Positions 20,084 through 39,238 of a stretch of DNA of 39,238 bases are shown piece after piece. The position numbers were made by a program, and so were the translations under genes. The stretch spans positions 1-39,238 of the forward strand of contig JBEIQV010000001.1 in the NCBI GenBank assembly GCA_040376335.1, in the 5' to 3' direction. The notes below the pieces were generated by a model that saw only the letters and a list, made by a program, of their open reading frames with translations, was not told the origin of the DNA and searched no databases. The number at the start of each line of letters is the position of its first letter. Position 1 is the stretch's first letter. The stretch is from Verrucomicrobiia bacterium. GTDB lineage: Bacteria > Verrucomicrobiota > Verrucomicrobiia > Chthoniobacterales > Chthoniobacteraceae.

Positions 20084-20109
20084 CCTGAGTAAGCTGCGCT
20101 GACATCCCC

Positions 20110-21042: not shown

Positions 21043-21046
21043 TTGG

Positions 21047-22120: not shown

Positions 22121-22137
22121 AGCATAGCTATCGTATT

Positions 22138-22161: not shown

Positions 22162-22196
22162 AAATCCTTCAAACTCACCATAAACCTTCAAAAATA

Positions 22197-23081
22197 ATGT
22201 ATATCGATTCATTCAAAGTCTTCTGCGACCTAGTCAAAACCAGCAGTTTCTCAAAGTCCGCAGTGCTCAACAACATCACCCAAAGTGCGGTCAGTCAGCA
22301 AGTGCGCAGCTTGGAAATTCGATTCGACTGCACGCTCGTTGAGCGCGGACGGCGCAATCTTTCGCTCACTCCCGAAGGCCTTGCCTTTCATAAGACATGC
22401 GAAAAAATAATTTCTGTCTGGGATGATTTCGAAGCACGACTCAAGGAAATCAAAAATGTTGTTGAAGGCGAGGTTCGTGTGGCTTCGATCTACAGCATCG
22501 GGTTGCACGAATTACCAGCACGCCTGAAAACTTTTAGCGACAAAAACCCGGATGTGCACGTGCGTGTCGATTACTGCCGTTCACAGCAGGTGTATGAAAT
22601 GATTGAGTCCGGCAAAGCCGATCTCGGCTTGGTGGCTTATCCTGCAAAACATTCGGGCGTCCTGTTTGAAGTTTTCGATGAAGATCATCTGGTGTTGATT
22701 TGCCATCCGAAGCACCCATTGGCCGCAAAGAAGAAAGTTTCACTGAGCGCGCTCAAGGGAGAGAAGTTCCTCTCTTTCGATCCTGAATCGCCCACACGTA
22801 AAGCCATTGATCGATGCCTGCGTGACGCCCAAGTGAAGGTCGTGAACGCTGGTGAATTCGACAATATCGAAACAGTCAAACGCTCAGTCGAAATCGAGAG
22901 CGGCATCTCCATCGTGCCTTCGCACTCGATAAAGCAGGAGGTGAAAGCTGGCCGACTCGTCGCAGTGGAAATAGAGGGTCAGAAACTAACGCGTCCGCTA
23001 GGGCTTGTTTACAGCCGCACGCGTCCCCGTCCCGCGGGCCTGAAAGAACTGATCGCTTCGCTCAAGGAGTCCGCGAAGTAA
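22197..23081 (+). CDS. LysR-family transcriptional regulator
   Basis: 294 aa. N-terminal wHTH (FSKSAVLNNITQSAVSQQVRSLE) and a C-terminal substrate-binding domain. Confidence 0.9.
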   Translation: MYIDSFKVFCDLVKTSSFSKSAVLNNITQSAVSQQVRSLEIRFDCTLVERGRRNLSLTPEGLAFHKTCEKIISVWDDFEARLKEIKNVVEGEVRVASIYSIGLHELPARLKTFSDKNPDVHVRVDYCRSQQVYEMIESGKADLGLVAYPAKHSGVLFEVFDEDHLVLICHPKHPLAAKKKVSLSALKGEKFLSFDPESPTRKAIDRCLRDAQVKVVNAGEFDNIETVKRSVEIESGISIVPSHSIKQEVKAGRLVAVEIEGQKLTRPLGLVYSRTRPRPAGLKELIASLKESAK

Positions 23082-23126
23082 CTCCGATCTTTTCATTCGA
23101 GGCCCGTGTCTGCTTCTTTAAACACC

Positions 23127-23981
23127 ATGGAAGCAAACATCGGCATCATAGGCGGCAGCGGGCTTTACCAAATCGAGGGACTCACTGACGTCTGCGAACA
23201 CCAGTTGGAGACGCCTTTCGGAAGACCCTCTGATGCAATCATCGGTGGAAAACTCGGCGGGCGGCAGGTCTTCTTTTTACCAAGGCACGCGCGTGGGCAC
23301 CGTATTTTGCCGCATGAACTTCCGCACAAGGCAAACATCTGGGCTTTGCGCTCACTAGGCGTGCGATTCGTTGTGTGTGTGACTGCCGTGGGTTCGTTGC
23401 AGGAAAAATATGCACCACGACACATCGTGCTTCCGTCGCAGTTTTTTGACCGCACATCGCAGATTCACACATTCTTCGGCGCTGGAATCGTCGCGCACGC
23501 CTCATTTGCAGAACCGATCTCTGCGGCATTGCAGCAGATCATTTTCGAGGAAGGAAGCGAGCTAGGCTGCACGATGCACAAGGGTGGCACCTATGTGAAT
23601 ATGGATGGTCCGCAATTCAGCACACGTGCAGAGAGCGAGACGAATCGAAAGCTTGGCTTCGACGTGATCGGCATGACCAACCTCGCCGAAGCAAAGCTTT
23701 GTCGCGAAGCAGAAATCGCCATGGCAACACTCGCTATGATCACCGATTACGACTGCTGGAAAGTCGAGGAGGAACCAGTGACTGCGGAGGCCGTCATCTC
23801 CCATCTGCTCGCCAATGCGGACACTGCCAAACGCATTCTAGCCCGAGTGGTTCCGCGCATTCCAACTACGGCGGACTGGCCGGAGCATCGTGCGCTGGAC
23901 ATGGCGCTAGTGACTGACCGCAAGCTGTGGCCGGCGAAAACTGCGGAGAAACTCAAACCAATCCTCGGGCGCTTTTTGTAA
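23127..23981 (+). CDS. mtnP: S-methyl-5'-thioadenosine phosphorylase
   Basis: GIIGGSGLY, FLPRHARGH, MTNLAEAKLCREAEI and ITDYDCW. The ATG at 23127 is preferred over the GTG at 23106. Confidence 0.9.
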   Translation: MEANIGIIGGSGLYQIEGLTDVCEHQLETPFGRPSDAIIGGKLGGRQVFFLPRHARGHRILPHELPHKANIWALRSLGVRFVVCVTAVGSLQEKYAPRHIVLPSQFFDRTSQIHTFFGAGIVAHASFAEPISAALQQIIFEEGSELGCTMHKGGTYVNMDGPQFSTRAESETNRKLGFDVIGMTNLAEAKLCREAEIAMATLAMITDYDCWKVEEEPVTAEAVISHLLANADTAKRILARVVPRIPTTADWPEHRALDMALVTDRKLWPAKTAEKLKPILGRFL

Positions 23982-23990
23982 ATTAGTGCA

Positions 23991-24010
23991 AGCGGCACCG
24001 CTGGTTTTTT
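23991..24010 (+). terminator. Weak intrinsic terminator candidate after mtnP
   Basis: AGCGG-CA-CCGCT short stem (23991-24002), then GG and TTTTTT (24005-24010). The stem is short and the loop is tight. Confidence 0.35.
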
Positions 24011-24014
24011 CGGC

Positions 24015-24830
24015 TTATTCGACAGCCGCAATCATCCGCGTTGCCTGTGCGGCGGCGCGCACGTTGTGGACGCGGAAAATTTGCGCGCCACGCAGCATTC
24101 CGCTCACGAGACAGGCGATGGTGCCCGCATCGCGTTCCGGCGCGGGCAGGCCGAGCACGGCGCCGATGACTGTTTTGCGCGACACTGGCAGGAGCAGCGG
24201 ACGGCCAAAGTGGTGCAGCCGTTCCAACTCGCGGTAGATGCGCAGGTTGTCGTCTCGCTGTTTCGCGAAATCTATGCCGGGGTCGAGAATCGTTGCCTCG
24301 CGTGGCACGCCCGCTTTTTCCACGAGTGCGATTTTTTCTGAGAAGAAGTCATCGAGTCGCGCCATCACGTCATCGTAGCCGACGTGCGTGTGTGCGACTT
24401 TCGGCTGGCCCACTGTGTGCATGATGAGCAGCGCTGCGCCCGTGTCGGCGCAAATGCGCGCATTCTCGTCGTCGGGCAGTGCGCCGATGTCGTTGAGGAT
24501 GTGACCGCCGCGCGGCAGCACGCGACGCGCGACGCCGGGCCGCCATGTGTTGATGGAAAGCAAAGTCGGATCGTCCCAGCGTTCGATGAAACGCAGCAGT
24601 TGCGACGCTTCCTCCTCCTCGGGGATTGGGCCGCGATTGGTGCGCGCGCTTTCGGCCCCGATGTCCACGATGTCCGCGCCGTCGGCGACAAGCTGCCGCG
24701 CTTTCACCACCGCTGCTTCGATGTCCGTGATGCCGTCGCCGGAGAACGAATCCGCGACCAGATTCACAATGCCCATGATGAGCGGACGGCGTGGAAAAGT
24801 GATCGTGTGGCCGCGAGCGAGGAGTTTCAC
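24015..24830 (-). CDS. folP: Dihydropteroate synthase
   Basis: IMGIVNLVADSFSGDG, DIVDIGAESARTNRG, LLSINTW and ILDPGIDFAK. The GTG at 24830 overlaps the upstream gene's TGA (GTGA), so it is preferred over the track start at 24890. Confidence 0.9.
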   Translation of the reverse strand: MKLLARGHTITFPRRPLIMGIVNLVADSFSGDGITDIEAAVVKARQLVADGADIVDIGAESARTNRGPIPEEEEASQLLRFIERWDDPTLLSINTWRPGVARRVLPRGGHILNDIGALPDDENARICADTGAALLIMHTVGQPKVAHTHVGYDDVMARLDDFFSEKIALVEKAGVPREATILDPGIDFAKQRDDNLRIYRELERLHHFGRPLLLPVSRKTVIGAVLGLPAPERDAGTIACLVSGMLRGAQIFRVHNVRAAAQATRMIAAVE

Positions 24831-25639
24831 GGCAGCGGCACGGTGGAGCGTTTGCGGCGCGTGAAACGCAGCGTCTCCGTGTAGCCGCAAATTTTTGCCA
24901 GCGCCGCAGCCTCCACGAAACGCGCGCCCACATCCCCAGGCGTGTGAGCGTCGGAGCTAATCAGAATCGGCACGCCCGCCGCGTTTGCGAGTTCAATGAA
25001 TTCACGTGCCGGATATTGCTCGGCGCATTCCTTTCGCCAGCCAGCGGTGTTGATTTCGTAGGGCACGCCTGACTCCGCAAGCGCGGCAATCGCGCCGTCG
25101 TAGTAGCGTCGCAAGTCGCCCGCCGGATGAATGCCAAATTTTTTCGGCAAATCTGGATGCGCCACAAAATCAAACAGTCCACTGCGAATACACTGCGCAT
25201 AGAGCCGCCAGTAGCTCGCCCAGATTTCCTCCGCTGCGCCGCCCGTGTGACGGCTGAGATACTTTGGATTATCCACCTCCCAGCCCTCCGGCAGATAATG
25301 GACGCTGCCGATGAGGTAATCCCATTCCGCCATACCCGCGAGTTCTTCGATCCACTTTTCTTGTCCGGGGATGAAATCACATTCCAGCCCGAGCTTGATG
25401 TTGAGTTGCGGAAATTCCGCGCGCGCCTTCGCGACTTCGTCGAAATAGCGCGGCAAATCCTCGCGCAACATCCGCCAGTCATCGAACGGTTCCGGCATCG
25501 GATTGTGATCCGCAAAACCCAGTTCCCCCAGACCGCGCTCCACCGCCGCACGTGCATAATCCACTGGCCACCCCTCCGCATGACGGCAGAGCGGCGTGTG
25601 CGTGTGGTAATCAGCAAGATTGGTGAGCAGCGAAGGCAC
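24827..25639 (-). CDS. HisJ-family histidinol-phosphatase (PHP domain)
   Basis: 270 aa. DYHTHTPLCRHA, GFADH, GSVH and SSDAH metal-binding motifs. Confidence 0.85.
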   Translation of the reverse strand: MPSLLTNLADYHTHTPLCRHAEGWPVDYARAAVERGLGELGFADHNPMPEPFDDWRMLREDLPRYFDEVAKARAEFPQLNIKLGLECDFIPGQEKWIEELAGMAEWDYLIGSVHYLPEGWEVDNPKYLSRHTGGAAEEIWASYWRLYAQCIRSGLFDFVAHPDLPKKFGIHPAGDLRRYYDGAIAALAESGVPYEINTAGWRKECAEQYPAREFIELANAAGVPILISSDAHTPGDVGARFVEAAALAKICGYTETLRFTRRKRSTVPLP

Positions 25640-25839
25640 AAGCCGTCTCTACGCTCCCGCCGCCCCACAGGCAACGCCGCACTCTGATCGCCCTTTTAAG
25701 TGATGCCCGGCAATGCTGGTTGACCCTTTGAAGGACTGGGACGAGTGTAGCTGGGATTTGTTCAGGGCCGCTCGCCATTTCGGGTGAGGCACCGGTCGCT
25801 GCTGTGGTGAGGCGGACAAGAATCCGGGAACTGCTGCCT

Positions 25840-28122
25840 ATGAATACACTGACCAATACCAAACACATCGCCTTCGTCGGCGATTACGTGCCGCGACGCT
25901 GCGGCATTGCCACTTTTACAGCGGACATTTGCGAGGCCATCGCTGCGGAGTTTCCGCAGGCGCAGTGCATCGTGGGGTCTGTGAATGATCGGCCCGAGGG
26001 ATACGATTATCCATCGCGGGTGCGGTTCGAGATTGATGAGCAGGAGTTGGATTCCTACCGGCGTGCAGCGGAATTTTTGAACATCAACAACGTCGAAGTC
26101 GTTTCCGTGCAGCACGAGTTCGGCATCTATGGCGGTGCTGCGGGCGCACACTTGCTCGAGTTTCTGCGCGAGGTGCGAAAGCCGGTGGTCACGACGCTGC
26201 ACACCGTTCTCAGCGAACCGAACAGCGATCAGCGTGCGGTGATGGAGCAACTCAATGTGTTCTCGAATCGCTTCATCGTAATGGCCGAGCGTGGGCGAGA
26301 TTTGCTGATGAGCGTTTATGGTATCGCGCCGGAGAAAATAGATCTCATTCCACATGGCGTGATTGATATGCCGTTCATTGACTCGAATTTTTACAAGGAC
26401 GTCTTTGGCGTGGAAGGAAAGACGGTGCTGCTCACCTTTGGTCTGCTATCGCCGAACAAGGGCATCGAGCACGTCATCGAGGCGCTGCCGGAGATTCTCA
26501 AGCGGCATCCACAAATCGTGTATCTCGTGCTCGGCGCGACGCACCCGCATTTGCTGGCGCGCGAAGGCGAGGCGTATCGTGAAAAACTGGAGCGTCTCGC
26601 GGAAACGTGCGGCGTGTCGGAGCAGGTAATATTTTACAACCGCTTCGCAACGATCGAGGAGTTGAAGGAATTCATTGGCGCGGCGGACATTTACATCACG
26701 CCGTATCTCAACGAAGCGCAGGTCACTTCCGGCACGCTCGCTTACACGTTCGGCGCCGGGAAGGCGATCATCTCCACTCCGTATTGGCACGCGCAGGAGT
26801 TGCTCGCAGGCGAGCGCGGTTTGCTGGTTCCGTTTCGGGATTCGGCGGCGATTGCAGAGGGCGTGAATCATTTTCTCTCGAACCCGACTTTGATGACTGC
26901 GATGCGAAAGCGTGCGTGGAAAGCAGGGCGCGAGATGATCTGGCCGGTCGTCGCGCGGCGCTACATGGAGAGTTTCGAGCGTGCGCGCGCGAGCCTCAGC
27001 GTGCCGTCGGTGGAAACTGTAGCCGTCCGCACTATCGAGCACGCGAACTATCCCGTCCCGCCACTGAAGCTCGATCATCTGCTCAAGATGAGCGACCACA
27101 CGGGCATCTTTCAGCACGCGATCTACAACGTGCCGAACTACCACGAAGGCTATTGCACCGATGACAATGCGCGTGCGTTTATCTTCACCGTGCTGCTGCA
27201 AAAAATGGAGGAGCCGCAGCCGGAGATTGAGCGGCTGGAAAGCAGCTACCTCGCGTTCCTGTGGTATGCGTTCGATGCGAATACGTCGCGCTTTCGCAAC
27301 TTCATGAATCATCACCGGCAGTGGATCGAGCGTGCCGGCTCGGAGGACAGCCACGCACGCGCGCTATGGGCTGTCGGCACAGCGCTCGGGCGCTCGCGCA
27401 ACGAAGGACATCGCAATCTCTGTGCGCTGCTTTTTCAACGCGGACTGCCGCCGGTCGCGCGGTTCAGTTCACCACGTGCGTGGGCGTTTGCGTTGATCGC
27501 GATTCACGAATATCTGCGCACTTTTTCCGGTGACCGCGTGGTGGCGAAAATGCGCGACCTGCTCGCGAGGAAACTCGTGGCTTTGTATCACACAAATGCA
27601 TCGTCGAACTGGCAGTGGTTCGAGCGCATCGCTACCTACGATAACGCCAAACTCTCGCACGCACTGATCCTGAGCGGTCATTGGACTTCCAACGGCGAAA
27701 TGCTCGATATCGGACTCAATTCGCTGCGTTGGCTGCTCGAAGCGCAGACTGCGGAGGGTGGTCACTTCGCGCCGATTGGTTGCCACGGATTCTGGACGCA
27801 TGACTGCGAGCGTGCGCGTTTTGATCAACAACCGCTCGAAGCACACTCAATGCTCTCCGCTTGTCTCGAAGCGTTCGCTGTCACGCGGGATGACTACTGG
27901 CACCGCGCAGCGCGCAGTTGCTTCGAGTGGTTTCTCGGTCGAAACGATCTCGGCCAGTCGCTCTATGATCCGACGACAGGCGGTTGCCGCGATGCGCTGC
28001 TGCAGGATCATCTCAACCAGAATCAGGGCGCAGAATCCTCGCTGGCCTTCTACCTTTCCCTCGCCGAACTCACACACGCAGAAGGCGTGCAACCCGCGAT
28101 CCTGCCGATATGCGCAGCTTGA
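25840..28122 (+). CDS. GT4-family glycosyltransferase with a ~370-aa C-terminal extension
   Basis: The ATG at 25840 (MNTLTNTKHIAFVG) is preferred over the track start at 25804. GT-B fold features are present (VVSVQHEFGIYGG; LLTFGLLSPNKGIE; ITPYLNEAQVTSGTLAYTFGAGKAIISTP). The C-terminal half is Trp/His-rich with no recognised motif. Confidence 0.85.
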   Translation: MNTLTNTKHIAFVGDYVPRRCGIATFTADICEAIAAEFPQAQCIVGSVNDRPEGYDYPSRVRFEIDEQELDSYRRAAEFLNINNVEVVSVQHEFGIYGGAAGAHLLEFLREVRKPVVTTLHTVLSEPNSDQRAVMEQLNVFSNRFIVMAERGRDLLMSVYGIAPEKIDLIPHGVIDMPFIDSNFYKDVFGVEGKTVLLTFGLLSPNKGIEHVIEALPEILKRHPQIVYLVLGATHPHLLAREGEAYREKLERLAETCGVSEQVIFYNRFATIEELKEFIGAADIYITPYLNEAQVTSGTLAYTFGAGKAIISTPYWHAQELLAGERGLLVPFRDSAAIAEGVNHFLSNPTLMTAMRKRAWKAGREMIWPVVARRYMESFERARASLSVPSVETVAVRTIEHANYPVPPLKLDHLLKMSDHTGIFQHAIYNVPNYHEGYCTDDNARAFIFTVLLQKMEEPQPEIERLESSYLAFLWYAFDANTSRFRNFMNHHRQWIERAGSEDSHARALWAVGTALGRSRNEGHRNLCALLFQRGLPPVARFSSPRAWAFALIAIHEYLRTFSGDRVVAKMRDLLARKLVALYHTNASSNWQWFERIATYDNAKLSHALILSGHWTSNGEMLDIGLNSLRWLLEAQTAEGGHFAPIGCHGFWTHDCERARFDQQPLEAHSMLSACLEAFAVTRDDYWHRAARSCFEWFLGRNDLGQSLYDPTTGGCRDALLQDHLNQNQGAESSLAFYLSLAELTHAEGVQPAILPICAA

Positions 28123-29569
28123 CCATCCATTCTACGGGCATCGCCCTCCGGCCCAATAACGCCCGCGTGCTCATCCGCCCATTCATCCCGGGAGACACGG
28201 CGCGCATCGTCAATATTCTCGGACGCGCGCTTGCGCTCAGCGAGGCCGAGATCGAGGAACAACTGGTCGCCGTCACCGAGGATTTCGGAACGCGGCATTT
28301 GAATCTCCGCACTTTCTGGCGTCGTCATTTTGATCGGGTGAAAGGATACGTCTTCAGCGGACGTCCGCTCTCCGAAGCCCGGCAGCTCTACATCGGCGCG
28401 CTTTTTCCGGTGAATATGCGCTCGAATCCGCCGCGCTTTTCAATCCCTCCATCGTGCCGCATCCGGATCAATCCGGTCTCGCCGAGGGCGAGCTGCGTTT
28501 TATTCTCAGTCTACGTGCGACCGGTGAGGGACACATCTCGTCCATCGAATTTCGCACCGGCATCATCCATGCCGATCACAGTATTACGATGGAAGAGCCG
28601 TCACGATTCGTCACGGCACCGAAGCTGAATCCGAATCCGACTTACCTCAAAACTGCATTCCTTCACAAATTGATGGAGATGGGTTTCGAGAATGACTGGT
28701 CGGCAGCCGTCATGACGTCGCTTGGAGACAACTTCACACTTAGTGAACTTGAAACAGCCATGCGTCGTGCGGTGCGAGGTGCCGGGCCGCTGCCGCGTGA
28801 AGTGCAGCGCACGATGGAGTGCGTGCGATGGCTCGCGGAGTCGAACTACGAAGTTCACTTTGATCCATCCGTCGCCGTCTCGGAGCGCATTATTTTCCCC
28901 GTCTCGTCGAACGAGAGCAACGGAATGGAGGATGCCCGCTTCGTGCGCTTCATCGAAGACGACGGCAGCGTGATCTACTACGCGACATATACGGCCTACA
29001 ATGGTCGCGCGATTCTCCCGCAGCTTCTCGAAACCACCGACTTCCTCAGCTTCCGCGCCCGAACGTTGAACGGACGCGCGGTGCAAAACAAAGGCATGGC
29101 TTTTTTCCCGCGCCGCATCGGCGGGCGCTTCGCCATGATCTCGCGACAGGACGACGAAAACCTCTTCCTCATATATTCCGAGAATCCCCATTTTTGGAGC
29201 GACCCGCAGTTGTTGCGGCGTCCATGTCATTCGTGGGAGGCGGTGAAAATCGGTAACTGCGGATCGCCGATTGAAACCGAAGCCGGCTGGCTCGTCATCA
29301 CGCACGGCGTCGGTCCGATGCGCAAATACTGCATCGGCGCGATGCTGCTCGATTTGGAAGATCCGAGCAAAGTGATTGGCGAACTCGAAGAACCGCTCCT
29401 TCGTCCCGAGGGCAATGAGCGCGAGGGCTACGTGCCCAATGTCGTCTATACCTGCGGCGCGCTCGTGCATCGAGGGCAGTTGATTCTTCCCTACGGAATC
29501 AGCGATGTGACGACGAAAATCGTAACTCTGGAAATCAAAGCACTCCTCGCCGCCTTTACCCGTTATTGA
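28110..29569 (+). pseudogene. GH130-like glycosidase/phosphorylase (DUF377-type), frameshifted at a T5 run
   Basis: The N-terminal 98 codons are in the frame of ATG 28110 (MRSLTIHSTG...QLYIGALF). The remainder is in the -1 frame (SGEYALESAALFNPSIVPHPDQ...SNGMEDARFVRF...YYATYTAYNG...). The switch is at TTTTT 28402-28406. On either side of the switch the alternative frame reads as Arg/Pro/Ser-rich junk. Confidence 0.7.
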
Positions 29570-29576
29570 GTCGCGA

Positions 29577-29795
29577 TTAGACCGTGCTCAGGACGCGGGG
29601 CTCCGGGGATTTTTCGAGGGCGGTTTCGTTGGCGGCGATGCCGAGGAGGTTTTTGGCTTCAAATTCCTTGCACCAGCCTTTGATTTCCGTGTCGTTGAAA
29701 ATTTTCCCGAGCACGCGGCGGAGCAATCCTTTCAACGAAGGATTTTCGAGTTCGCTGAGGCTTTGGATGGCTTGCTCTTTGTAGCGTTCGTCATC
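29577..29795 (-). pseudogene. Orphan 3' fragment (last 70 codons + TAA) of the DUF116-polyprenyl synthase gene
   Basis: The minus-strand translation is DDERYKEQAIQSLSELENPSLKGLLRRVLGKIFNDTEIKGWCKEFEAKNLLGIAANETALEKSPEPRVLSTV*. It matches the C-terminus of the 36882-38663 gene at 68 of 70 residues. There is no start codon, and an in-frame stop lies immediately upstream at 29796-29798. Confidence 0.85.
29578..29790. repeat. Left copy of the 213-bp direct repeat bounding the zor islet
   Basis: Hand alignment to 36883-37095 gives 196/213 identical with no indels. Similarity stops abruptly on both sides. Confidence 0.9.
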
Positions 29796-29835
29796 TTAGA
29801 ATTCTATAGAACGAACAATCTGCTCGCAATTCGCT

Positions 29836-31695
29836 ATGGTTATGCGAAGCCGCGATAACTTCCTCATGGGATTTTCACTCCAGCTATTCACGGACTTGCG
29901 TTTTGTATGGGCCTGCGTGGGTTTCCTAACCACGCTTGCTTTGGTGACTGGTGCGCTTTGGTTGTGGCGCTGCCGTCAGGCAATAACGGCATTGAAAAAA
30001 GCGCGCATCACTCTCGCTGGGAGTTCGGGGCAGACCGAGTTTGCGGCGGATTATCACGGATTTATTGAGCGAATTCGGGGAGCAGTCAGACGCGTGCCGG
30101 CATTTCACGAGGCTTGGGAGCGGTGGGAACGGATTCTCCAGTCGTTCCAAAGAGCGGATGGTAAGCAGGTAATTTCCGCCGAAAAGCCAGCGAGCGATTT
30201 TTTCACTCTCGCGGCTTGGGAGCGGAGCATGGCTATGCACTGGTATCGCGCGCTGCCAAATTATCTCGTGGGGCTGGGGCTGTGTTGCGCGTTTCTCGGT
30301 GTAGTCGCTGTGATCCAAGGCGCTGCAACGAGCCTTCAAACCGCACAGCATGTTGCGCTTTCTCCGGAAGAAATCGCGCAATACAAGGACAAGCCGTCTG
30401 AGGCAGCGGGTTATCTAGCTGCAAAGGTTGCTGCCATGCAAACGGAAGCATTGCGGAGTCTTCTGGATGCGGCATCGTTCAAATTCGTCACCTCGCTCGT
30501 AGGCGTCGCGATGTCGCTGGCCTACTCGCTGTTCTTTCGCTGGCGGCGCATCAACGTCGAACGCCACATCGCGGACTTGGTGGCTGATTTGAACCGCCGG
30601 GTTTTCATGTTGAATCCCACGGCGCTACTGCTCCAAATCCGCGAGGAAAACCAGCATCAGACGGGATGCTTGGAGACGATGGCAACGAACGTCGGAGTGG
30701 CTGTCGGAGAGCAGTTCACGAAGGCAACGCAGGTGATGGGGGACGCGCTTTCGCGGCTGGAAGCCACTGTGCAGGCAATGGGGGCGCAGATGGGCGAAAA
30801 GACCGATGCGATGAAGCAGGCGATTGACGGCATGAGCGGCGGGATCGTCGAGACAACCTCGAAAGATCTCGAAAAACTTGTGACTGCCGCAGTTGAGTTG
30901 CTCAATACAACGCTCAAACAGCACCTCGAAGAAGTGGCCAACGCCTTGAAAGATACCGGTGTAGAAATCGAAGCTGCGCGCTTGGCGTTTGGCGAGGTGC
31001 TCGGGCACGCGCGAGTGGTGCGTGGAGAGTATGCCACGCTGGCGGAGGAAATCCAGGCACGCACTAGCGAGGTGAGCGAACTGCTATTGAAAGCTGAGGG
31101 TGAAGTAGAGACAAGACTGCGCGGCGCGGTGACGGCCGCGGAGGAAATCCAAACAGCCCTTGGCAAGGCGGCGGAGAGCGCATCGGGCATGGATTCTCTT
31201 GGTGCGGGACTGGCTAAGGCGGCATCGGCGGTGGAGAGTGCCGCGACCAACTGGCAGACGATGGGCGAGGATTTCAGCAAGCTCACGCTCGCAAATGGCA
31301 ACGCATCCGAAACGGTGCGGGCGGCGATGGAATCGCTGCGGGCGCATTGGGAGGCGCAGGGGGCGAGGATCGGCGAAATAGACACCCACCTCGCGGCGAC
31401 GATTGGCGCGGTTCAGCAGCATTTTGACGGTTACGCGCTACGACTGCGGGAATACACGACGGAACTGGATTCACAGCTCGGCCGTGCCGTGGGCAGCTTC
31501 AGTGCGGTGATTGAGTCGCTCAGTGATGCACCCGAGCGTTTCGGAGATGCCGGAGCGCAGTTGCAAAAGGCCGCGCAAAACGCCATGAGTGCGCTGGAAC
31601 CGCTCCGCAAACTCGATGGCCTCGCCGCCGCAATTTCCAAATCGGCTGACGCCTTGCGTGCGGCCATTCCTGAAGCACAAGAACCTCAGCCGTGA
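29836..31695 (+). CDS. zorA: ZorA-like MotA/ExbB-type channel protein with a long helical tail
   Basis: 619 aa. TM helices FVWACVGFLTTLALVTGALWLW, YLVGLGLCCAFLGVVAVIQGAA and FVTSLVGVAMSLAYSLFF, then about 350 aa of Ala/Glu/Leu/Gln-rich helical sequence. First gene of a 4-nt-overlap operon. Confidence 0.75.
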   Translation: MVMRSRDNFLMGFSLQLFTDLRFVWACVGFLTTLALVTGALWLWRCRQAITALKKARITLAGSSGQTEFAADYHGFIERIRGAVRRVPAFHEAWERWERILQSFQRADGKQVISAEKPASDFFTLAAWERSMAMHWYRALPNYLVGLGLCCAFLGVVAVIQGAATSLQTAQHVALSPEEIAQYKDKPSEAAGYLAAKVAAMQTEALRSLLDAASFKFVTSLVGVAMSLAYSLFFRWRRINVERHIADLVADLNRRVFMLNPTALLLQIREENQHQTGCLETMATNVGVAVGEQFTKATQVMGDALSRLEATVQAMGAQMGEKTDAMKQAIDGMSGGIVETTSKDLEKLVTAAVELLNTTLKQHLEEVANALKDTGVEIEAARLAFGEVLGHARVVRGEYATLAEEIQARTSEVSELLLKAEGEVETRLRGAVTAAEEIQTALGKAAESASGMDSLGAGLAKAASAVESAATNWQTMGEDFSKLTLANGNASETVRAAMESLRAHWEAQGARIGEIDTHLAATIGAVQQHFDGYALRLREYTTELDSQLGRAVGSFSAVIESLSDAPERFGDAGAQLQKAAQNAMSALEPLRKLDGLAAAISKSADALRAAIPEAQEPQP

Positions 31696-32579
31696 ACGAA
31701 CCATCCGGCCAACACGACGAAGCGGAGGAAAACTACTTCATCTCGCTCAGCGACCTCATGACCGGCGTGGTCTTCATCTTCGTGATTCTGCTTTGCGCGT
31801 TCGCCTTTCACTACCAGAGCGCCCAACGCGACGCTGACTCGAAAGCGAAAGACTACAATGATGCCAAAGCAAACGCCGATGCTGAAAAAAAGAAGGCGGA
31901 TAACGCACAGGATCTGGCAAACGAAGCGACAGAAAAAGCCAAGGCTGCAGAGGCGGATGCGAAAGAGAAAGGGCGGAAGATTGACGCGCTCAGTAAGCTG
32001 CTGCGCGACCGCGACAATGCCCTGCGCGTGATCCTGAGCGAACTTGTGGACAAGCTTGCGGCTCGCGGAGTCCGTGTGATGTTCGACCCGGCGACGGGTG
32101 TCATTCGTCTGCCAGAGGAGCTGCTTTTCGATCGTGGCAGCAACATCCTGAGCGAGAGCGGACGGCGTGGCCTTTCGGTGTTGGCGGAGGAAATCGTCCC
32201 CGTCCTGCATCGCGGTTGCGCAGAAGGCTCCACTTTCCGGCTCGAAGCCGTTTTCATCGAAGGCCACACTGACGCCGATCCGATTCGTTCACCGCGCTTC
32301 GCGGACAACTGGGATCTCTCCGCCGCACGCGCGACGAACACCTATCGCACGCTCACCGCGGCCAAGCCTGAGCTGGAATCCTTCCGCAATCCGGGCGGGC
32401 TCCGTGTCATCGGCGTGAGCGGCTACGGCGAGAACCGTCCCGTGGCTCCGAACGACACGGATGCAAACAAAAAGGCGAACCGCCGTGTGGACTTGCGGTT
32501 CCTCATGGCGCGCCCGACAGATGCCGAACTCGAACGCGCACGGCGGGAAATTGATGGACCGCCAAAGCCCGAAAAGTGA
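31692..32579 (+). CDS. zorB: ZorB-like MotB/OmpA-family protein
   Basis: 295 aa. MotB-type N-terminus with conserved Asp (YFISLSDLMTGVVFIFVILL). A charged Lys/Ala/Asp/Glu linker. OmpA-like peptidoglycan-binding domain (IEGHTDADPI...NWDLSAARATN...GYGENRPVAPNDTDANKKANRRVDLRF). The GTG start overlaps the zorA TGA. Confidence 0.8.
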   Translation: MNEPSGQHDEAEENYFISLSDLMTGVVFIFVILLCAFAFHYQSAQRDADSKAKDYNDAKANADAEKKKADNAQDLANEATEKAKAAEADAKEKGRKIDALSKLLRDRDNALRVILSELVDKLAARGVRVMFDPATGVIRLPEELLFDRGSNILSESGRRGLSVLAEEIVPVLHRGCAEGSTFRLEAVFIEGHTDADPIRSPRFADNWDLSAARATNTYRTLTAAKPELESFRNPGGLRVIGVSGYGENRPVAPNDTDANKKANRRVDLRFLMARPTDAELERARREIDGPPKPEK

Positions 32580-34018
32580 CCGCCATGCCGTCGCCTCTCG
32601 CCGTCCAGTTGCAATCGCTGCGTAGAAGCCTCCACTCTCGCGAAGTGCAGCCATTTCCCGTGCGCGCTCTAACGGCTGCCGTGAATGCGCTCGGTGACTG
32701 TGCGCTTGCGGAACCTCCGCCGCCACACGACCGCCTCGCCAAATTGTTTGAAAACATCTGCGCACAACTCTCCGCAGGCGTGCCTGTGGTGGAACTCAGC
32801 AAATCTGAGTGGCTGGATGCACCGTGGCTAGTGTTCGAACGCTGGAATGAGCGCGCCTTTGTAGAAGTAGGCGCGTTTCGCAATGGATTGTCGCTGGCGG
32901 CGGGTGCAAGCGCGATGGTGGGCAGGCGGTGTATCTACGTATTTCTCCGCGACTACGACCCGGAGGCTGCGCGTATTACTGCGCCGCTAGGACTCGTGAT
33001 TAGTGACGCTCTACAAGCCGGACACGAAACGCTTGCGGCGTGGGTAGAGCGAAGTCGGCAATTCCGCCATTTTGCGCCCGATGGTGGGCCGCCGGCTGTC
33101 GTGGAACAGTTGCGTTCTTCTCGTCCCGAAAAGCCGGTGACACATCATTTCGAAGATGTCGGAATCAGCGGCCCACTCGCACACGGCGGCTTTTCGTTTG
33201 GGATGCTACTCGCATGGTGCAGTCGCGCACACGAGCGTCCTTGGGAAAATCAGGAAATCATTGAGAATTGGATGACTCAGTGTTCCGGCCCAATGGCGGG
33301 TAGAGAGTATCGAGTTGTTGAGCGTCTTTTATTACCGTGGCGCTCCGAAGACCCCGCCGGAGAATGGAGAACACCGCTACTCTCTTGGCTGCAAGAGCGA
33401 TACGGTGATCCTCGTGATGCTGTTGCAGGCGTTTGGCCGCAAGTGGACGCGGAACTTCGTGATGTCGCTGTCCGCTGGCTAACGCTACAAACCATCGAAG
33501 GATTTTTCGAGGCGCTTGACGATTATGCACGTCGGCGCGGAGATGATGCGATGCGGCAGCAATGGCCATTTCGCAAAGCATTCTGGCTTGCATACTACCG
33601 CCGTGGTGTCGTTCTTGATGCCAAGGCCGCAGTCGGGCGTGATATGGAGGAATGTCTTGGTTGGCAATCGCTCAAGTCACGATTTGGAAACCGGCTTGCG
33701 AAGCTCGAAAAGTTTGAATCAAAGCAATCCGCACTCTTCCTCAAGCTCCGTGGCCTCTTGGTGTTTGTCGGCACACACAATGCGAAATGCCGCCTTTGGG
33801 ATGAGGCGTCCCCGCATGCTCCAAATCTTCGCAGAACCTCGTTTCACTACTCTGAAATCATCGCGATCCCGCGCACAGATTTACTTGTGGATGGGTATGC
33901 TAACGAGACGGGTATTGCCCACATGGGCGCAGAAAACGGAACGTGGCAGCGTAAATTACGCGACTTCCTGCGCCAAAGGATCGGCGTCTCGATTCCTGAT
34001 ACTGAACTGATGCCATGA
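32576..34018 (+). CDS. zorC: ZorC-like protein (EH-signature-family candidate, divergent)
   Basis: 480 aa, soluble, with no catalytic motif recognised. The call rests on position and size between a MotB-like and an SNF2 gene, plus the WPFRKAFWLAYY...LVFVGTHNAKCRLW region resembling the ZorC core. There are 4-nt overlaps on both sides. Confidence 0.55.
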   Translation: MTAMPSPLAVQLQSLRRSLHSREVQPFPVRALTAAVNALGDCALAEPPPPHDRLAKLFENICAQLSAGVPVVELSKSEWLDAPWLVFERWNERAFVEVGAFRNGLSLAAGASAMVGRRCIYVFLRDYDPEAARITAPLGLVISDALQAGHETLAAWVERSRQFRHFAPDGGPPAVVEQLRSSRPEKPVTHHFEDVGISGPLAHGGFSFGMLLAWCSRAHERPWENQEIIENWMTQCSGPMAGREYRVVERLLLPWRSEDPAGEWRTPLLSWLQERYGDPRDAVAGVWPQVDAELRDVAVRWLTLQTIEGFFEALDDYARRRGDDAMRQQWPFRKAFWLAYYRRGVVLDAKAAVGRDMEECLGWQSLKSRFGNRLAKLEKFESKQSALFLKLRGLLVFVGTHNAKCRLWDEASPHAPNLRRTSFHYSEIIAIPRTDLLVDGYANETGIAHMGAENGTWQRKLRDFLRQRIGVSIPDTELMP

Positions 34019-36885
34019 CATACGACCTCAATTCAGAAGGCTTTCTCCTACGCAACAACGGGCAGCCTTTTTCTCAATGGGCGATAGACGCCAAACCCGT
34101 TCTCAGCGCCGCTTGCGCAACTCTTGCGGCACTTGCCGAGGAAAGCAGCTCGGAGCTTCTGCGTGACGGAGATTCAGGCTTTCTCTTGCCCCATGCAGAC
34201 GCTGCCGCATTGCCGGAAGCGGAAGCTCGAGCCCTGGGATTGCCTCAACGGTCGCCGTTCAGTTTGAGCATTCAGCATCGTGGAACGTTGGCGTCGCCGG
34301 ACTTTCGATTTCAACATCAACTCTTCAACGATGGTCGCCCGCTCATCGGGCCAAGGCGAGTCGGCTGCGTCATTCAAACAGGAGCGCAATCATGGCGATT
34401 GAGCTCCGCACATTTTGCCCTGCTCGATGGGATGGATGCGCTCAACGGTGGGCTCATAGGCTCAATGGAAGAGCGGATGCGAGTGTTTGCACGCTTTGAG
34501 CAGTTCCTCTCACAGCAGGCGCGTGATTCAGTAAATGTCAGCGGCTATCTTGCGGCGACGCATGTGGCGGTAGCCGGGGCCTTTTCGCTGCGGCTACGCG
34601 TGAAGGATGGGCGTTTTCGACTTGAACCGGTGCTGCACGCAAGCACGGCGACAGAAACGGACACACCGCCCGAGTTACTCCCGCCAGAGCAGCACAAAGA
34701 GTTCATCCGAACTCACGAAGCCGGGCGAGGGCGCTTTGCGCTCGGCGGCTCGCATTTTCTCGTCATTGAGGAAGACATGCAGCGTGCGCTAGACCTCGTA
34801 GCGGAGGTTCAGAAAAAGGACGACGGACACCAGACGGACTTCCTGCGCAATCCGCGTGCTTTTCTCCGTGCAGAATACGGTGATGCGCTACCGGAGGAAA
34901 CACTGGACGCTCTATTCGTGGAGACCCCTCAGTATTTGTCTGATCGCGTGAAAGGCATTGGGCTTTGGGACCCGCCGATCATTCCATGGGTGAAGTTGCC
35001 TGCGAATTCATGGCTACCACCGGAGGAATCTGGAATCGATTTTGGCGGCGTTCGCGTTGCGGTGCCGACTGCGCAGACAGACGAGATTATTCAGCGAGTG
35101 GAGCAGGCAATCGCGAGTGGAGATCCGGAGGTTGAAATCGGCGGGCAGATGGTTCCGGCAACTCAAGCGACGCTCGCGGCTTTGGAAAAAGTGAAATCGC
35201 TGGGTCAAACACCGAGAGAGCAAATCGAGCGCGAACAAAGCGCTACCACTGATCGCACCGTGCTTTTGATCGAGCGCGACTTTGATGATGCCGGCGCTGC
35301 GACTCGTCGCAGGAGCCGTGAGAGTGCGACCGATTTGTGGCTCCCTGTCGGCTTGCGGAGCACTTTAAAGCCACATCAGGAAACCGGCCTTCGCTGGCTG
35401 CAAACAACATGGCGCGAAGGCCGAAGCGGTGTGCTGCTTGCGGACGACATGGGCCTTGGCAAGACCCTACAATGCCTCGCTTTCCTCGTCTGGCTGCGGC
35501 ACGCACGGCCCGAGCGTGCGACGAATGAAGGCGGCTTCCTCATCGTCGCGCCAACGGGCTTGTTGCGAAACTGGGAGCAGGAATTCACGCAGCATCTTGA
35601 TGAAGCGGGACGCCGTTTGCTCGGCCCGCCACTCCGAGCTTACGGAAGTGACCTTGCACGGCTGCGAGTCGGTGCGGGCAATGACATCGTGCGCGGTGGC
35701 GTCTCGCTACGGACAGACGAAATCGCAAGTGCCGGATGGGTGCTGACGACCTACGAGACGCTGCGAGATTACCATCACAGCCTGGGGACGATTCGCTGGC
35801 AGGTGCTCGCCTTTGACGAAGCGCAGAAAATCAAGACACCCGGCACGCTCGTGAACGAAGCCGCGAAGGCGATGAACGCAGACTTCTCTCTAGCGCTGAC
35901 CGGCACGCCGGTAGAGAACCGCTACGCTGATCTGTGGAGTATCGTGAACACCGTAGACCGAACCGCACTCAGCGCTATCGGCGGAGGCTCCCTCTTTGAA
36001 TTCAGTGCGAAATTTGAGGCAGAGCCGGAAGATTCCGCGCTCCGCGAACTTCGCAACCATCTCACAGAACCAGCAGCCAGCGCGCTCATGCTGCGGCGGA
36101 TGAAACACGACATCCTCGAAGGACTGCCGCCCAAGACAGAACACAAAGCTCCTGCCGATATGCCGCCAGACCAAGCGCGACTTTACGCGGAAGCGGTGAA
36201 TCGAGCCCGCAGCATCCGCGAGCGCGGGATGATGCTCAAAGCCTTGCAAGAGTTCCGCGCAATCTCCCTGCATCCGTGGTTGATGAATGCGGAGGAACCG
36301 CCGGACATTTCTGCCCTCGCCGCGTGCTCTGCGCGAGTTGCGGAATGCTTTCGCGCCCTGCACCACATCCGCGCTCGGGGAGAAAAGGCACTCGTGTTTG
36401 TGGACTCACGGCGGATGCAAAAGTGGCTGCGCATCGTGATGCCATCGGAATTTGGCCTCGCTGAACCTCCCTCGTGCATCACCGGTGAAGTCCCCGGCGC
36501 ACGGCGTCAGGCTATAGTAAACGCCTTCCAAACCTTACCGGCCGGATTCGCGGTAATCCTTCTCTCGCCCCGTGCTGCTGGAGTCGGTCTCACCCTCACA
36601 GCGGCGAATCACGTCATCCACCTCGACCGTTGGTGGAATCCCGCCGTGGAAGATCAATGCACCGACCGCGTCTATCGCATCGGCCAAGAGAAGGCCGTGC
36701 AAGTCTGCCTCCCAATTGCACGCCACCCCGACCCACACCTCGCTGACATCTCTTTCGACCTCACGCTCGACCGCCTCATGCAGCGCAAGCGCACTCGCAG
36801 TCGCGACTTGCTCAATCCACCCGTGGAGACGGCGCAAGATACCGATGAGCTTTTCCGCAGTATTTGCGGACAATTGCCGAGCTAG
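34015..36885 (+). CDS. zorD: ZorD-like SNF2-family helicase
   Basis: 956 aa. About 440 aa of N-terminal region with no recognised domain. SNF2 motifs follow: LKPHQETGLRWL, LLADDMGLGKTLQ (motif I), VLAFDEAQKIK (motif II) and LALTGTPVENR (III). The helicase-C region reads LLSPRAAGVGLTLTAANHVIHLDRWWNPAVEDQCTDRVYRIGQ. Confidence 0.82.
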   Translation: MTYDLNSEGFLLRNNGQPFSQWAIDAKPVLSAACATLAALAEESSSELLRDGDSGFLLPHADAAALPEAEARALGLPQRSPFSLSIQHRGTLASPDFRFQHQLFNDGRPLIGPRRVGCVIQTGAQSWRLSSAHFALLDGMDALNGGLIGSMEERMRVFARFEQFLSQQARDSVNVSGYLAATHVAVAGAFSLRLRVKDGRFRLEPVLHASTATETDTPPELLPPEQHKEFIRTHEAGRGRFALGGSHFLVIEEDMQRALDLVAEVQKKDDGHQTDFLRNPRAFLRAEYGDALPEETLDALFVETPQYLSDRVKGIGLWDPPIIPWVKLPANSWLPPEESGIDFGGVRVAVPTAQTDEIIQRVEQAIASGDPEVEIGGQMVPATQATLAALEKVKSLGQTPREQIEREQSATTDRTVLLIERDFDDAGAATRRRSRESATDLWLPVGLRSTLKPHQETGLRWLQTTWREGRSGVLLADDMGLGKTLQCLAFLVWLRHARPERATNEGGFLIVAPTGLLRNWEQEFTQHLDEAGRRLLGPPLRAYGSDLARLRVGAGNDIVRGGVSLRTDEIASAGWVLTTYETLRDYHHSLGTIRWQVLAFDEAQKIKTPGTLVNEAAKAMNADFSLALTGTPVENRYADLWSIVNTVDRTALSAIGGGSLFEFSAKFEAEPEDSALRELRNHLTEPAASALMLRRMKHDILEGLPPKTEHKAPADMPPDQARLYAEAVNRARSIRERGMMLKALQEFRAISLHPWLMNAEEPPDISALAACSARVAECFRALHHIRARGEKALVFVDSRRMQKWLRIVMPSEFGLAEPPSCITGEVPGARRQAIVNAFQTLPAGFAVILLSPRAAGVGLTLTAANHVIHLDRWWNPAVEDQCTDRVYRIGQEKAVQVCLPIARHPDPHLADISFDLTLDRLMQRKRTRSRDLLNPPVETAQDTDELFRSICGQLPS

Positions 36886-38663
36886 ACCGTGCTCAGCACG
36901 CGGGGCTCGGGAGATTTTTCCAGTGCGGTTTCGTTGGCCGCGATACCGAGGAGGTTTTTGGCTTCGAATTCCTTGCACCAGCCTTTGATTTCCGTGTCGT
37001 TAAAAATTTTTCCGAGCACGCGGCGGAGCAATCCTTTCAAAGAAGGATTTTCCAGTTCACGGAGGCTTTGAATGGATTGTTCTTTGTAGCGTTCGAGGAG
37101 GTCGGTGCAGCGCTCCACTGCGCCGAGATCGCGATAGAGTTGCTCGACTTCGGCAATGCCCGCAGTGCTCGTGCGCGACCACAATGCGCTGGTGATTTTT
37201 CGATGCTCGCACTCGGCGCGTTCGTGTGCGGTGGCGAGGAGCAGGCTGGGGCGGAGGCCGGCGATATCGCTGGTGTCGGCGGTCTGGCCGAGGTCGGCGA
37301 GGTCGTCGCGGATTTGGTAGGCGATTCCGAGTGCTTCGCTATAGGCGTGCAGCACGTCGCGCACGGTGTCGTGTGTTTCGACGCCCGCAAACAGCGCGCC
37401 GATGCGCAGCGCGACCTCGAAAGCGGGAGCGGTTTTCTTTTTGAAAATATCGAGCACTTGTAGGCTCGTGAGCACATCGGGCTGGCGTGCCCAGACGAGT
37501 TCCGCACCCTGACCACGGCTGAGTTCGCGCTGGCCTTCGGCGGCGACGAGGAGCATTGCGGCGCGTTGTTCGGCGGAAATTTCGCACGCGCTCAGTAGGC
37601 GGTAGCCTTCGCCGATGAGCAGGTCGCCGATGTTCAATGCGACGGGGACGCCGTGTTCTTCGTGCAGCGTTTTTTCGCCGTAGCGCGTGGCGTCGCCATC
37701 TTCGATGTCGTCGTGAATGAGCGAGGCTTTGTGGAAGCACTCGACGGCGATGGCGGCGCGCTTGAGGTCGTCGGGTAATGTGGCGTTTGGACCCGCGAGT
37801 GCGCGCCATGCGGCGACGGCGAGGAAGGGCCGCCAGCGTTTACCCGCACGGGTGAGCCACTCGCGCGCGATGCGTTCTGTTTCGCCCTCGGCGGGGCCGA
37901 TGAGCGCGGTGAGTGATTCGCTGGAAAACCACGAGTCCACTTCGCTGCGGAGCGTGCCGAGATCGAGGCGGCGCGTGGAATCGTCGGCGGTGAGGTGGAT
38001 GTAGTCCCACACCCAGTCGAGATCCACGGTCGTATCAATGCAGTCGTCTTGCAGCAGCGGCACGGCGACGCCGGGAATGGCGGCGGCCTCCATGTAGGGG
38101 AAGCTGCGCTCCAGCACGCTGAGGCACGAAATGCCGACGATGGCCTCGATTTGCCCTGTCTGGATGAGCGACATCACGATGGCGCTACCCTCGGCGACGA
38201 GCACCGCGTAGCCGAGGCGCTCGGCTTCGTTTTGGAGATCCTGAATCGAGCACTGGCCGCATTGTTTGCACAGCAGGCCGAACTCATCGAACGGCGCGGG
38301 GCATTTGCTTTCGAGGCGCAGGCATTTCGGCATGAGCAGCAGCCGGCGCTCGAACGGCACGGCGGCGAGTTGCTCGCGCCACAGCTCGTTGTTGATCAAA
38401 ACACCCACGTAGTCGCGGTAGATGGCCGCGCAGCCGATGCGCTGGACGAGGCGATCTGCGTGCTCGCCGAGTTCCGCGAGCGGGACGGGTGGCGTGGGGC
38501 AAAACTCCGCGACGTAATTCCGCACCGCGTGCAAAATCGCTGTGCGTTCCTCGATGGTCTGCGGGATGTTTTTCTTCGGCTGACGAAAACGCGGCGGAGC
38601 CACCGGCTTCGGGAGCGAAAGTGAAATGGGCGGCACTGGCTGGCGCTGCGATTCAGTGGACAT
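36882..38663 (-). CDS. DUF116-like Cys-rich domain fused to a polyprenyl synthetase domain
   Basis: N-terminal half: LLLMPKCLRLESKCPAPFDEFGLLCKQCGQCSIQDLQNEAERLGYAVLVAEGSAIV...GISCLSVL (DUF116-like). C-terminal half: GKRWRP, ASLIHDDIEDGDATRYG (first DDxxD) and AYQIRDDLADL (second DDxxD). The ATG at 38663 is preferred, because the track start at 38777 is a TTG only 3 nt from the upstream stop. Confidence 0.8.
   Translation of the reverse strand: MSTESQRQPVPPISLSLPKPVAPPRFRQPKKNIPQTIEERTAILHAVRNYVAEFCPTPPVPLAELGEHADRLVQRIGCAAIYRDYVGVLINNELWREQLAAVPFERRLLLMPKCLRLESKCPAPFDEFGLLCKQCGQCSIQDLQNEAERLGYAVLVAEGSAIVMSLIQTGQIEAIVGISCLSVLERSFPYMEAAAIPGVAVPLLQDDCIDTTVDLDWVWDYIHLTADDSTRRLDLGTLRSEVDSWFSSESLTALIGPAEGETERIAREWLTRAGKRWRPFLAVAAWRALAGPNATLPDDLKRAAIAVECFHKASLIHDDIEDGDATRYGEKTLHEEHGVPVALNIGDLLIGEGYRLLSACEISAEQRAAMLLVAAEGQRELSRGQGAELVWARQPDVLTSLQVLDIFKKKTAPAFEVALRIGALFAGVETHDTVRDVLHAYSEALGIAYQIRDDLADLGQTADTSDIAGLRPSLLLATAHERAECEHRKITSALWSRTSTAGIAEVEQLYRDLGAVERCTDLLERYKEQSIQSLRELENPSLKGLLRRVLGKIFNDTEIKGWCKEFEAKNLLGIAANETALEKSPEPRVLSTV
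36883..37095. repeat. Right copy of the 213-bp direct repeat (functional 3' end of the fusion gene)
   Basis: See the left copy. This copy is contiguous with the intact ORF 36882-38663. Confidence 0.9.
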
Positions 38664-38780
38664 TGGTGAGGACGTTAGCGGCTGTGTGCGACAATCCGCA
38701 AGGGCGGAGGTTTCTTTGCGCGGGAGCGCAAAGAATCTGTTTGTCCCATCCGTCGAGCGCTGCGGCGCATAAGCCAACCG

Positions 38781-39238
38781 TTATGCGAGAATGGATTTCA
38801 CGAGCATGCCGTGCACGTCGGTGAGCCGGAAGTAGCGGCCTTGGAATTTGTAGATGAGCTTTTCGTGATCGATGCCCATGAGGTGCAGCATCGTCGCGTG
38901 GAGGTCGTGGACGTGGACGCCGCCTTCGACGATGTTGTAGCCGTAGTCGTCGGTTGCGCCGATAACGGCGCCGGGCTTCACTCCTCCGCCCGCCAGCCAG
39001 ATGCTGAAGCAGCGTGGGTGATGGTCGCGCCCGTAGTTGTTGCCGCTCATTTTGCCCTGACAGTAAGCGGTGCGTCCGAATTCTCCGCCCCAGACGACGA
39101 GCGTGTCGTCGAGAAGGCCGCGACGTTTGAGGTCGGTGATGAGCGCGGCAGAGGCCTGATCGGTTTGTTTGCACTGGCGGGTGATTCCGCCGACGACATC
39201 GCCGTGCTGGTCCCAGCCTTGGTGGAAGAGCTGGATGA
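38781..39238 (-). CDS. DUF1501 domain protein (sulfatase-like), 5'-truncated by the window edge
   Basis: The frame stays open to the window end. Translation: [14 protein letters not shown]...[44 protein letters not shown]...[17 protein letters not shown], the classic DUF1501 C-terminus. Confidence 0.88.

Follow-up and report, generated by a model that had tools for sequence, protein, structure and literature searches.

A Zorya type I operon between two copies of a gene end at a variable site in freshwater Chthoniobacteraceae

The operon and the repeated gene end

We analyzed a 39,238-nt stretch of DNA (the window) from a freshwater Verrucomicrobiia bacterium of the Chthoniobacteraceae (GenBank assembly GCA_040376335.1, contig JBEIQV010000001.1, positions 1–39,238), in which a Zorya type I defense operon, zorABCD, lies between two copies of the 3' end of a gene for a DUF116–polyprenyl synthase fusion protein (the fusion gene). 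The operon and its short leader, together called the cassette, are nearly clonal in two lineages whose flanks have diverged, and we tentatively propose that the cassette entered this site once, by recombination independent of an integrase. The features of the locus are listed below; L-numbered names denote the sequences compared with the window.

28110–29569, plus strand: GH130-like gene (mannoside phosphorylase family; Pfam PF04041, NCBIfam), 99% identical in L001 and L002
29570–29576, no strand: native 7-nt spacer between convergent stop codons, the same in the empty sites L001 and L168
29577–29790, minus strand: left copy, an orphaned end of the gene (70 codons and TAA), collinear with the empty site of L001; nearest allele L168 (9 differences)
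29791–36881, plus strand: cassette unit, the sole DNA recently common to both zor-bearing lineages; not in L001, L002, L168 or L169
29791–29835, plus strand: 45-bp leader from the orphan end to the zorA ATG, forming the left cassette border; one mismatch to L171, at 29804
29836–31695, plus strand: zorA (PADLOC ZorA1 models, E = 2e-33)
31692–32579, plus strand: zorB (PADLOC ZorB1, E = 4e-71; Pfam OmpA)
32576–34018, plus strand: zorC (PADLOC ZorC1, E = 3e-58; Pfam EH_Signature)
34015–36885, plus strand: zorD, SNF2 helicase, 956 aa, complete (PADLOC ZorD1, E = 1e-294; Pfam SNF2-rel_dom, Helicase_C)
36882–37095, minus strand: right copy, the gene's working end (70 codons and TAG), contiguous with the gene body; 5 variants unique among the sequences compared
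36882–38663, minus strand: DUF116 plus polyprenyl synthase fusion gene, 593 aa, ATG at 38663 (Pfam PF01976, PF00348)

PADLOC typed the operon as Zorya type I, with zorA (MotA-like), zorB (MotB/OmpA-like), zorC and zorD co-directional, in this order and with overlapping open reading frames (ORFs). All four are intact in the window lineage and in a second zor-bearing lineage represented by L171. The C-terminus of ZorD is complete, its LFRxxCG motif and short tail agreeing with those of relatives. The cassette is trimmed close to its genes, with 45 bp in front of zorA and 0 bp behind zorD; the zorD stop codon (TAG, 36883–36885) gives the right copy its first three bases and also overlaps the fusion-gene stop. 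GC content is host-like (0.586 in the cassette, 0.575 in the rest), and a promoter and terminator scan of 29300–30000 gave nothing on the zor strand above shuffle expectation.

The two gene ends (29578–29790 and 36883–37095) align without gaps and are identical at 196 of 213 positions (92%), with a start-to-start spacing of 7305; they form the sole long repeat within 27000–39238. Their minus strands code for the last 70 residues of the fusion protein and then a stop codon, which is TAA in the left copy (TTA at 29577–29579) and TAG in the right copy (CTA at 36882–36884). The 17 coding differences are spread over 16 codons and were scored by the Nei–Gojobori method as 15 synonymous and two nonsynonymous (A/S at codon 7 and S/R at codon 12), giving a dN/dS of 0.03. 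When 17 neutral changes were placed at random, none of 100,000 simulations reached 14 synonymous changes (mean 4.3, maximum 13). The left copy has no start codon and is preceded by an in-frame TAA two codons upstream of the repeat; the right copy runs on into the intact 593-aa gene. At the inner edge, the copies agree throughout their first 15 bp, longer identical tracts of 35 and 29 bp lie internally, and gene positions 1–12 (CGAACGCTACAA) are invariant across all strains compared. Plus-strand open frames of 60–66 codons run antisense to the gene end in both copies (29584–29784 and 36889–37071) and are probably a by-product of GC-rich codon usage, not a gene.

Most of this anatomy had been set out in a preliminary description of the window, and our recomputation returned it unchanged: the gapless match, the 70 shared codons with their different stops, the orphan left copy with its upstream in-frame stop, the continuity of the right copy with the intact gene, and the position of the left repeat 8 nt past the stop of the GH130-like gene (stop at 29569, repeat from 29578). 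Its tally of 14 synonymous changes plus three in two codons is equivalent to ours, with the same two residue changes.

The preliminary description had also named a chimeric or collapsed assembly junction as a possible source of the repeat. A Logan contig (L161, from ERR12084903) covers 29667–36944 at 99.96% and has the copy-specific variants on both sides. In the k141 contig L170, zorD, the right copy and the gene are all present and match the window perfectly as far as 37796, and the ENA scaffold L171, from another sample, reproduces the full order of GH130-like gene, orphan end, zorABCD and fusion gene. With junctions and copy-specific single-nucleotide polymorphisms recovered in three independent assemblies, the repeat structure is not an assembly artifact.

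Empty sites, other occupants and a second zor-bearing lineage

A species-level genome collection contained two Chthoniobacteraceae metagenome-assembled genomes with the fusion protein at 98% identity. In L001, window positions 19580–29790 and 36882–39236 map as one continuous stretch with a single 213-bp copy. In both L001 and L168 (a short ENA contig), the single gene end stops 7–8 nt from the stop of the GH130-like gene, which is the empty site that had been predicted from the window. Homology to the empty site stops abruptly at 29790|29791, and on the right side the sequence is in frame and continuous with the gene. We therefore read 29790|29791 as a putative illegitimate (nonhomologous) junction, with the right junction apparently lying within homology. 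A leader stretch, IAxxEQxxR, was considered as residual homology past the inner boundary; it has ∼55% nucleotide identity and overlaps the zorA start, and was judged to be a chance match.

A different insert occupies exactly this site in L002 (12466–12994) and L169 (660–1187). It is ∼520 bp long, unrelated to the cassette, and starts inside the last codon of the fusion gene, where GTC TAG becomes GTG TGA; a decayed remnant of the displaced gene end, ∼27 nt, follows. Its two small ORFs (71 and 84 aa) overlap and run in the same direction, a toxin–antitoxin-like layout, and neither has a match in Pfam or NCBIfam. Its versions in L002 and L169 are ∼10% divergent, unlike the nearly clonal zor cassette. 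The site thus exists in the population in three states (empty, two-ORF insert and zorABCD) and is a variable hot spot between convergent core genes. Two independent insertions appear each to have left a displaced gene end, one of 213 nt and one of ∼27 nt, and these unequal lengths fit random illegitimate joints better than a single recombinase core.

We compared the two window copies with four single-copy relatives and with the copies of L171. Including the stop codon, the window copies differ at 18 positions, and both states are found in other strains at 10 of them. Private variants number five in the right copy (positions 20, 25, 43, 55 and 85) and three in the left copy (one nonsynonymous, two synonymous). 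The single-copy orthologs differ from one another at 9–16 of 214 positions, compared with 18 between the two window copies. Because 10 of the 18 differences are polymorphisms of other strains, the copies are two population alleles of one recombining species cluster and not the product of decay after duplication. The earlier suggestion that both copies evolved under purifying selection as functional ends in different lineages is supported by these shared states and by the low dN/dS.

Which copy is the resident one is less clear-cut. L168 is the sequence closest to the left copy (9 differences) and to both immediate flanks, and it is the one from which the right copy is farthest (18 differences). 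The view of the left copy as the displaced ancestral end, put forward in the preliminary description, is thereby weakly favored. A comparison with L168 gave 4 differences in the last 150 nt of the gene body and 18 in the 214-nt right copy, a weak contrast. A donor tract in the gene body beside the right copy was sought by sliding-window divergence against L001 and L002 and was rejected for want of a clear block.

The junction between zorD and the gene end recurs in other assemblies (L170 and L171–L176), as the preliminary description had asked of its proposal. ZorD variants in the same cluster are 99.1%–99.6% identical to that of the window and share its C-terminal tail. Contigs L171–L176 have the same junctions as the window, and the alignment of the window with L171 is collinear with one gap. 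Identical junctions in two lineages were therefore formed once. Divergence between the window and L171 is distributed as follows.

Cassette, 29791–36881: 47 mismatches in 7091 positions, 0.66%
Left flank: 91 mismatches in 1801 positions, 5.05%
Left copy: 11 mismatches in 214 positions, 5.1%
Right copy: 18 mismatches in 214 positions, 8.4%
Gene body: 68 mismatches in 1568 positions, 4.3%

There are no mismatches from ∼35800 to 36911. The flank mismatches nearest to the cassette lie at 29778 (12 bp from the border) and 36912 (30 bp), within a read or k-mer of it, and are therefore physically linked to it. The two copies of L171 differ from one another at only 3 sites. Set against the 0.66% of the cassette, the divergence of the right and left copies means that no gene-end copy travels stably with the cassette. 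The preliminary description had taken 29791–37095 as the inserted DNA. Structurally this stands, as 29791–36881 plus one gene-end copy; either copy can exchange its sequence with population alleles.

By geometry, a simple double crossover from a donor with the cassette between two copies into an empty site would have to co-transfer at least one repeat-length of donor repeat, so either lineage could have served as a direct donor to the other only if further events took place. L170 is identical to the window over 33489–37796 and then shows clusters of 8 mismatches in 49 bp (38778–38826) and 11 in 85 bp (39075–39159). These clusters look like short recombination imports and suggest patchy homologous exchange in the population.

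When every sizeable ORF of the 39-kb window was scanned with Pfam, the matches were confined to housekeeping-type domains and the four zor genes, with no integrase, transposase or phage gene among them. No tRNA genes were found, nor any inverted repeat joining the cassette ends. Elsewhere, 160 loci with the fusion gene were compared, and none had zor or a further C-terminal copy. Of the other zor operons, the closest (75%–94% amino acid identity in ZorD, at most ∼80% in DNA) are at unrelated loci, and related zor operons at other loci have neither flanking direct repeats nor a gene fragment. A metagenome scan for close relatives of the fusion gene had a best match of 84% amino acid identity and was uninformative.

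Other zor operons were located at L162 1–6619, L164 6317–12883 and L166 6047–12760. One has Uma2, PPIase, rpoZ and smpB as neighbors; the others have rho and pyruvate phosphate dikinase upstream and differ in their right neighbors. The ends of several contigs, 7.2–7.7 kb long, fall close to the operon borders, suggesting that the junctions at these loci also vary between strains. In the distant relatives L010 and L011 (∼13019–16216), a 1065-aa SNF2-like ORF lies ∼1.3 kb downstream of the fusion-gene homolog and is 32% identical to ZorD over the helicase core, a candidate for another defense gene at the corresponding position.

As to the flanking genes, the 593-aa fusion gene was also called in L002, L170 and L171, and a look-up of the exact fusion protein of the window gave no record. 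Divergence of the gene is very uneven against both L171 and L001 (∼7%–9% at 37000–37600, ∼1%–2% at 37800–38400), which could be an import mosaic or could arise if the polyprenyl synthase part and the DUF116 part are under differing constraint. At 773–1957, the window has a further polyprenyl synthase gene that stands alone (Pfam PF00348, E = 2.5e-68). The GH130-like gene encodes 486 aa in L171, L002 and L001; the window copy is frameshifted at ∼28401 (28395–28410), with a run of five T residues against six in L171 and L001, and the shift may be either real or an assembly error. A 371-aa ORF at 28454–29569, which ends at the GH130-like stop cited in the preliminary description, is just the downstream part of the split gene.

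Origin of the insertion

The history we favor, though only tentatively and at somewhat less than an even chance, is one integrase-independent, homology-anchored insertion-duplication at this variable hot spot, followed by short-patch recombination that overwrote the flanks. The 7.1-kb zorABCD DNA would have entered once, joined by homology within the 3' part of the fusion gene and illegitimately at 29790|29791, either by homology-facilitated illegitimate recombination or by one-ended double-strand break repair. The donor DNA would have come from a related strain in which zorD already abutted the stop of the gene. Such an event would leave a complete gene end beside zorD and the resident last 213 bp orphaned beside the GH130-like gene. 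A joint within the 3' part of the gene itself would be harmless because the incoming DNA brings a complete end, but one within the GH130-like gene would not. Harmless joints of this kind would also explain the different orphan lengths of the two inserts. Later, short-patch homologous recombination with co-occurring strains, many of them zor-less, would have replaced the flanks repeatedly and each copy independently, the cassette itself being altered by mutation alone. Imports would end at the cassette border because the cassette has no homolog in those strains, and independent overwriting of the copies would yield the two different functional alleles of the window, with differences nearly all synonymous. 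One homologous junction, one nonhomologous joint and no mobility genes, the combination expected of homology-facilitated illegitimate recombination, are what the locus presents.

Several points weigh against this history. A donor with zorD abutting this gene and another left neighbor was not found, zor being present at 0 of the 160 loci, and no donor sequence upstream of the 45-bp leader came to light in which microhomology at 29790|29791 could be sought. That the L171 copies are nearly identical (3 differences) calls for a further assumption, namely, no overwriting since the insertion, a near-identical donor or gene conversion, and for both flanks to be overwritten to within 12–30 bp of the borders in at least one lineage, recombination must be very frequent. 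Moreover, scaffolds of the L171 type are certainly linked to the cassette by reads or k-mers for only ∼50 bp per border and may be strain chimeras farther out. The proposed history does not fully account for how alike the L171 copies are or for how near the breakpoints lie to the borders.

The preliminary description had instead seen the signature of an incoming element that targets the 3' end of a gene and supplies a surrogate end. This proposal was not supported: The 39 kb contain no mobility genes, and the surrogate is not conserved with the cassette. In the specific form of an e14/phage 21-icd type of element, it is an alternative we consider doubtful, if the most serious one. A recombinase would have crossed over within a short core (the invariant gene positions 1–12, CGAACGCTACAA), with attP carrying a surrogate 213-bp end; the integrase would have been lost or would act in trans, and the surrogate of L171 would later have been converted to the host allele. 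The order of the locus is the classic one, as described for icd and icdC on either side of e14 (PMC13626634), with a working gene bearing the surrogate end, the insert and the displaced orphan. The right copy is an outlier against L168-like flanks that the left copy fits, the two copies agree over their first 15 bp, and the left copies of the two lineages differ from position 13 on, as crossovers confined to the first 12 bp would predict. Yet neither the window nor the cassette has a recombinase gene, and the putative core is only 45 bp from the zorA ATG. A surrogate moving with the cassette should have diverged no more than the cassette; its 18 of 214 mismatches contrast with 0.66%, and mismatches lie 30–42 bp from the zorD stop, with none in the adjacent 1,080 bp of the cassette. 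IMG/VR has no viral contig with the gene-end 35-mer or a close ZorD (best 39%), on which grounds a viral vehicle for the cassette was rejected. Finally, related zor operons are without such repeats, and the other insert at the site duplicated ∼27 nt.

Another possibility, which we regard as improbable, is RecA-dependent cycling of the Campbell type, in which recombination between the repeats frees a circle (cassette plus hybrid repeat) and a single crossover into a zor-less gene end reintegrates it, regenerating the repeats. Direct repeats of 213 bp with 92% identity and a 35-bp identical tract can support recombination, and no recombinase would be needed. Compared with L001 and L002 alone, the private variants formed an apparent reciprocal mosaic (right copy 1–94, left copy 130–214, with a breakpoint in the 35-bp tract). 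Once L168, L169 and L171 were added, the mosaic became shared polymorphism, with the left copy L168-like throughout, and it was dropped as the main model. Cycling also predicts a complete donor repeat conserved between lineages like the cassette, which does not exist, and no circle junction or hybrid empty site was seen.

Still harder to credit is mobility of the cassette alone, with the same pair of nucleotide positions receiving 29791–36881 in different hosts and 213 bp of the host's own gene end being duplicated each time, through a staggered break or a template switch, and one window copy being overwritten later. The recently shared DNA is exactly the cassette, with borders sharp to within 30 bp and trimmed to 45 bp before zorA and 0 bp after zorD, and the L171 copies are nearly identical to each other, unlike those of the window. 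Against this, we found no enzyme, no terminal repeats and no known precedent for a 213-bp target duplication; a DNA transposon or insertion sequence was rejected for lack of a transposase and of a cassette-end inverted repeat, and because the duplication, at 213 bp, is not short. The 18 differences of the window would need an extra import coextensive with the repeat, close zor relatives elsewhere lack duplications, and the arrangement is known in two lineages only. If true, it would amount to a site-directed insertion-duplication, break- or replication-based, of a kind not described for defense islands.

Least credible, and contradicted for the window along with assembly artifact, is duplication in place followed by mutational divergence of a decaying left pseudogene: The L171 copies, 3 sites apart, look as a young duplication would, but 15 of 17 changes being synonymous has a probability of <1e-5 under neutrality (3e-5 to 4e-3 if 6–9 changes were neutral on one copy with at most one nonsynonymous), 10 of the 18 differences are shared with other strains, and only three variants are private to the left copy.

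Relation to known systems

Where e14 or phage 21 integrates in Escherichia coli icd (PMC13626634, citing Hill et al. 1989), icd is accompanied by an icdC pseudogene, and the copies differ mainly synonymously plus a couple of conservative residues. The locus described here resembles it in having an insert in the 3' end of a housekeeping gene, whose complete end and orphan C-terminal fragment lie on opposite sides of the insert. It differs in that e14, a cryptic prophage of 15 kb, carries an integrase of its own and has SOS-inducible excision, whereas the present insert consists of four defense genes without a recombinase, and in that the surrogate copy here is not conserved with the insert between lineages. 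A caution for readings made from sequence alone follows: Synonymous-only divergence of repeat copies need not mean that one of them arrived with the insert.

The history we favor has a closer counterpart in type VI secretion system (T6SS) effector–immunity, Rhs and contact-dependent growth inhibition (CDI) loci. For T6SS and Rhs loci, orphaned 3' ends have been proposed to arise by homology-anchored displacement without an integrase (PMC5361080), and homology-facilitated illegitimate recombination was demonstrated experimentally in several bacteria (PMC3240628). As in those loci, one side would be homology-anchored and the other illegitimate, with the resident downstream part kept as an orphan and no integrase. 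Unlike there, where the displaced pieces are toxin tips and immunity genes of one family, here a defense operon is inserted, the orphan stems from the end of a metabolic gene unrelated to it, and the event itself is inferred.

As a defense system, the operon is like Zorya type I in that zorA–zorD are all present and ordered, with overlapping ORFs and type I matches in PADLOC; it is known here from sequence. Unlike ZorD relatives of ∼1100 aa, in which the Mrr-like nuclease domain PF04471 is present, the 956-aa ZorD of the window lacks it in Pfam searches, as do its 950-aa relatives, and absence of PF04471 may define a nuclease-less ZorD subgroup.

The locus is a tractable natural case for the question of how defense systems at hot spots are acquired, kept and spread without mobility genes. 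Spread through flanking homology has been proposed for integrase-less hot-spot islands of Pseudomonas (PMC10250203). The site resembles the core defense hotspots (cDHS) of P. aeruginosa and the defense-island hot spots of E. coli in its variable defense content between core genes without mobility genes (PMC10250203, PMC10121019). Unlike the published hot spots, which are said to be scarless, it is a 7-nt gap between convergent genes in Verrucomicrobiota that bears a duplicated gene end as its scar. The locus thus combines two known kinds, a hot-spot defense island and an insertion with a displaced gene end, and the scar is clear but fairly ordinary. With this readable scar, an empty site, a second occupant and a second lineage, in which a nearly clonal cassette sits in flanks 5%–8% diverged up to its borders, it offers a natural system for discriminating among homology-anchored illegitimate recombination, border recombination and other routes.

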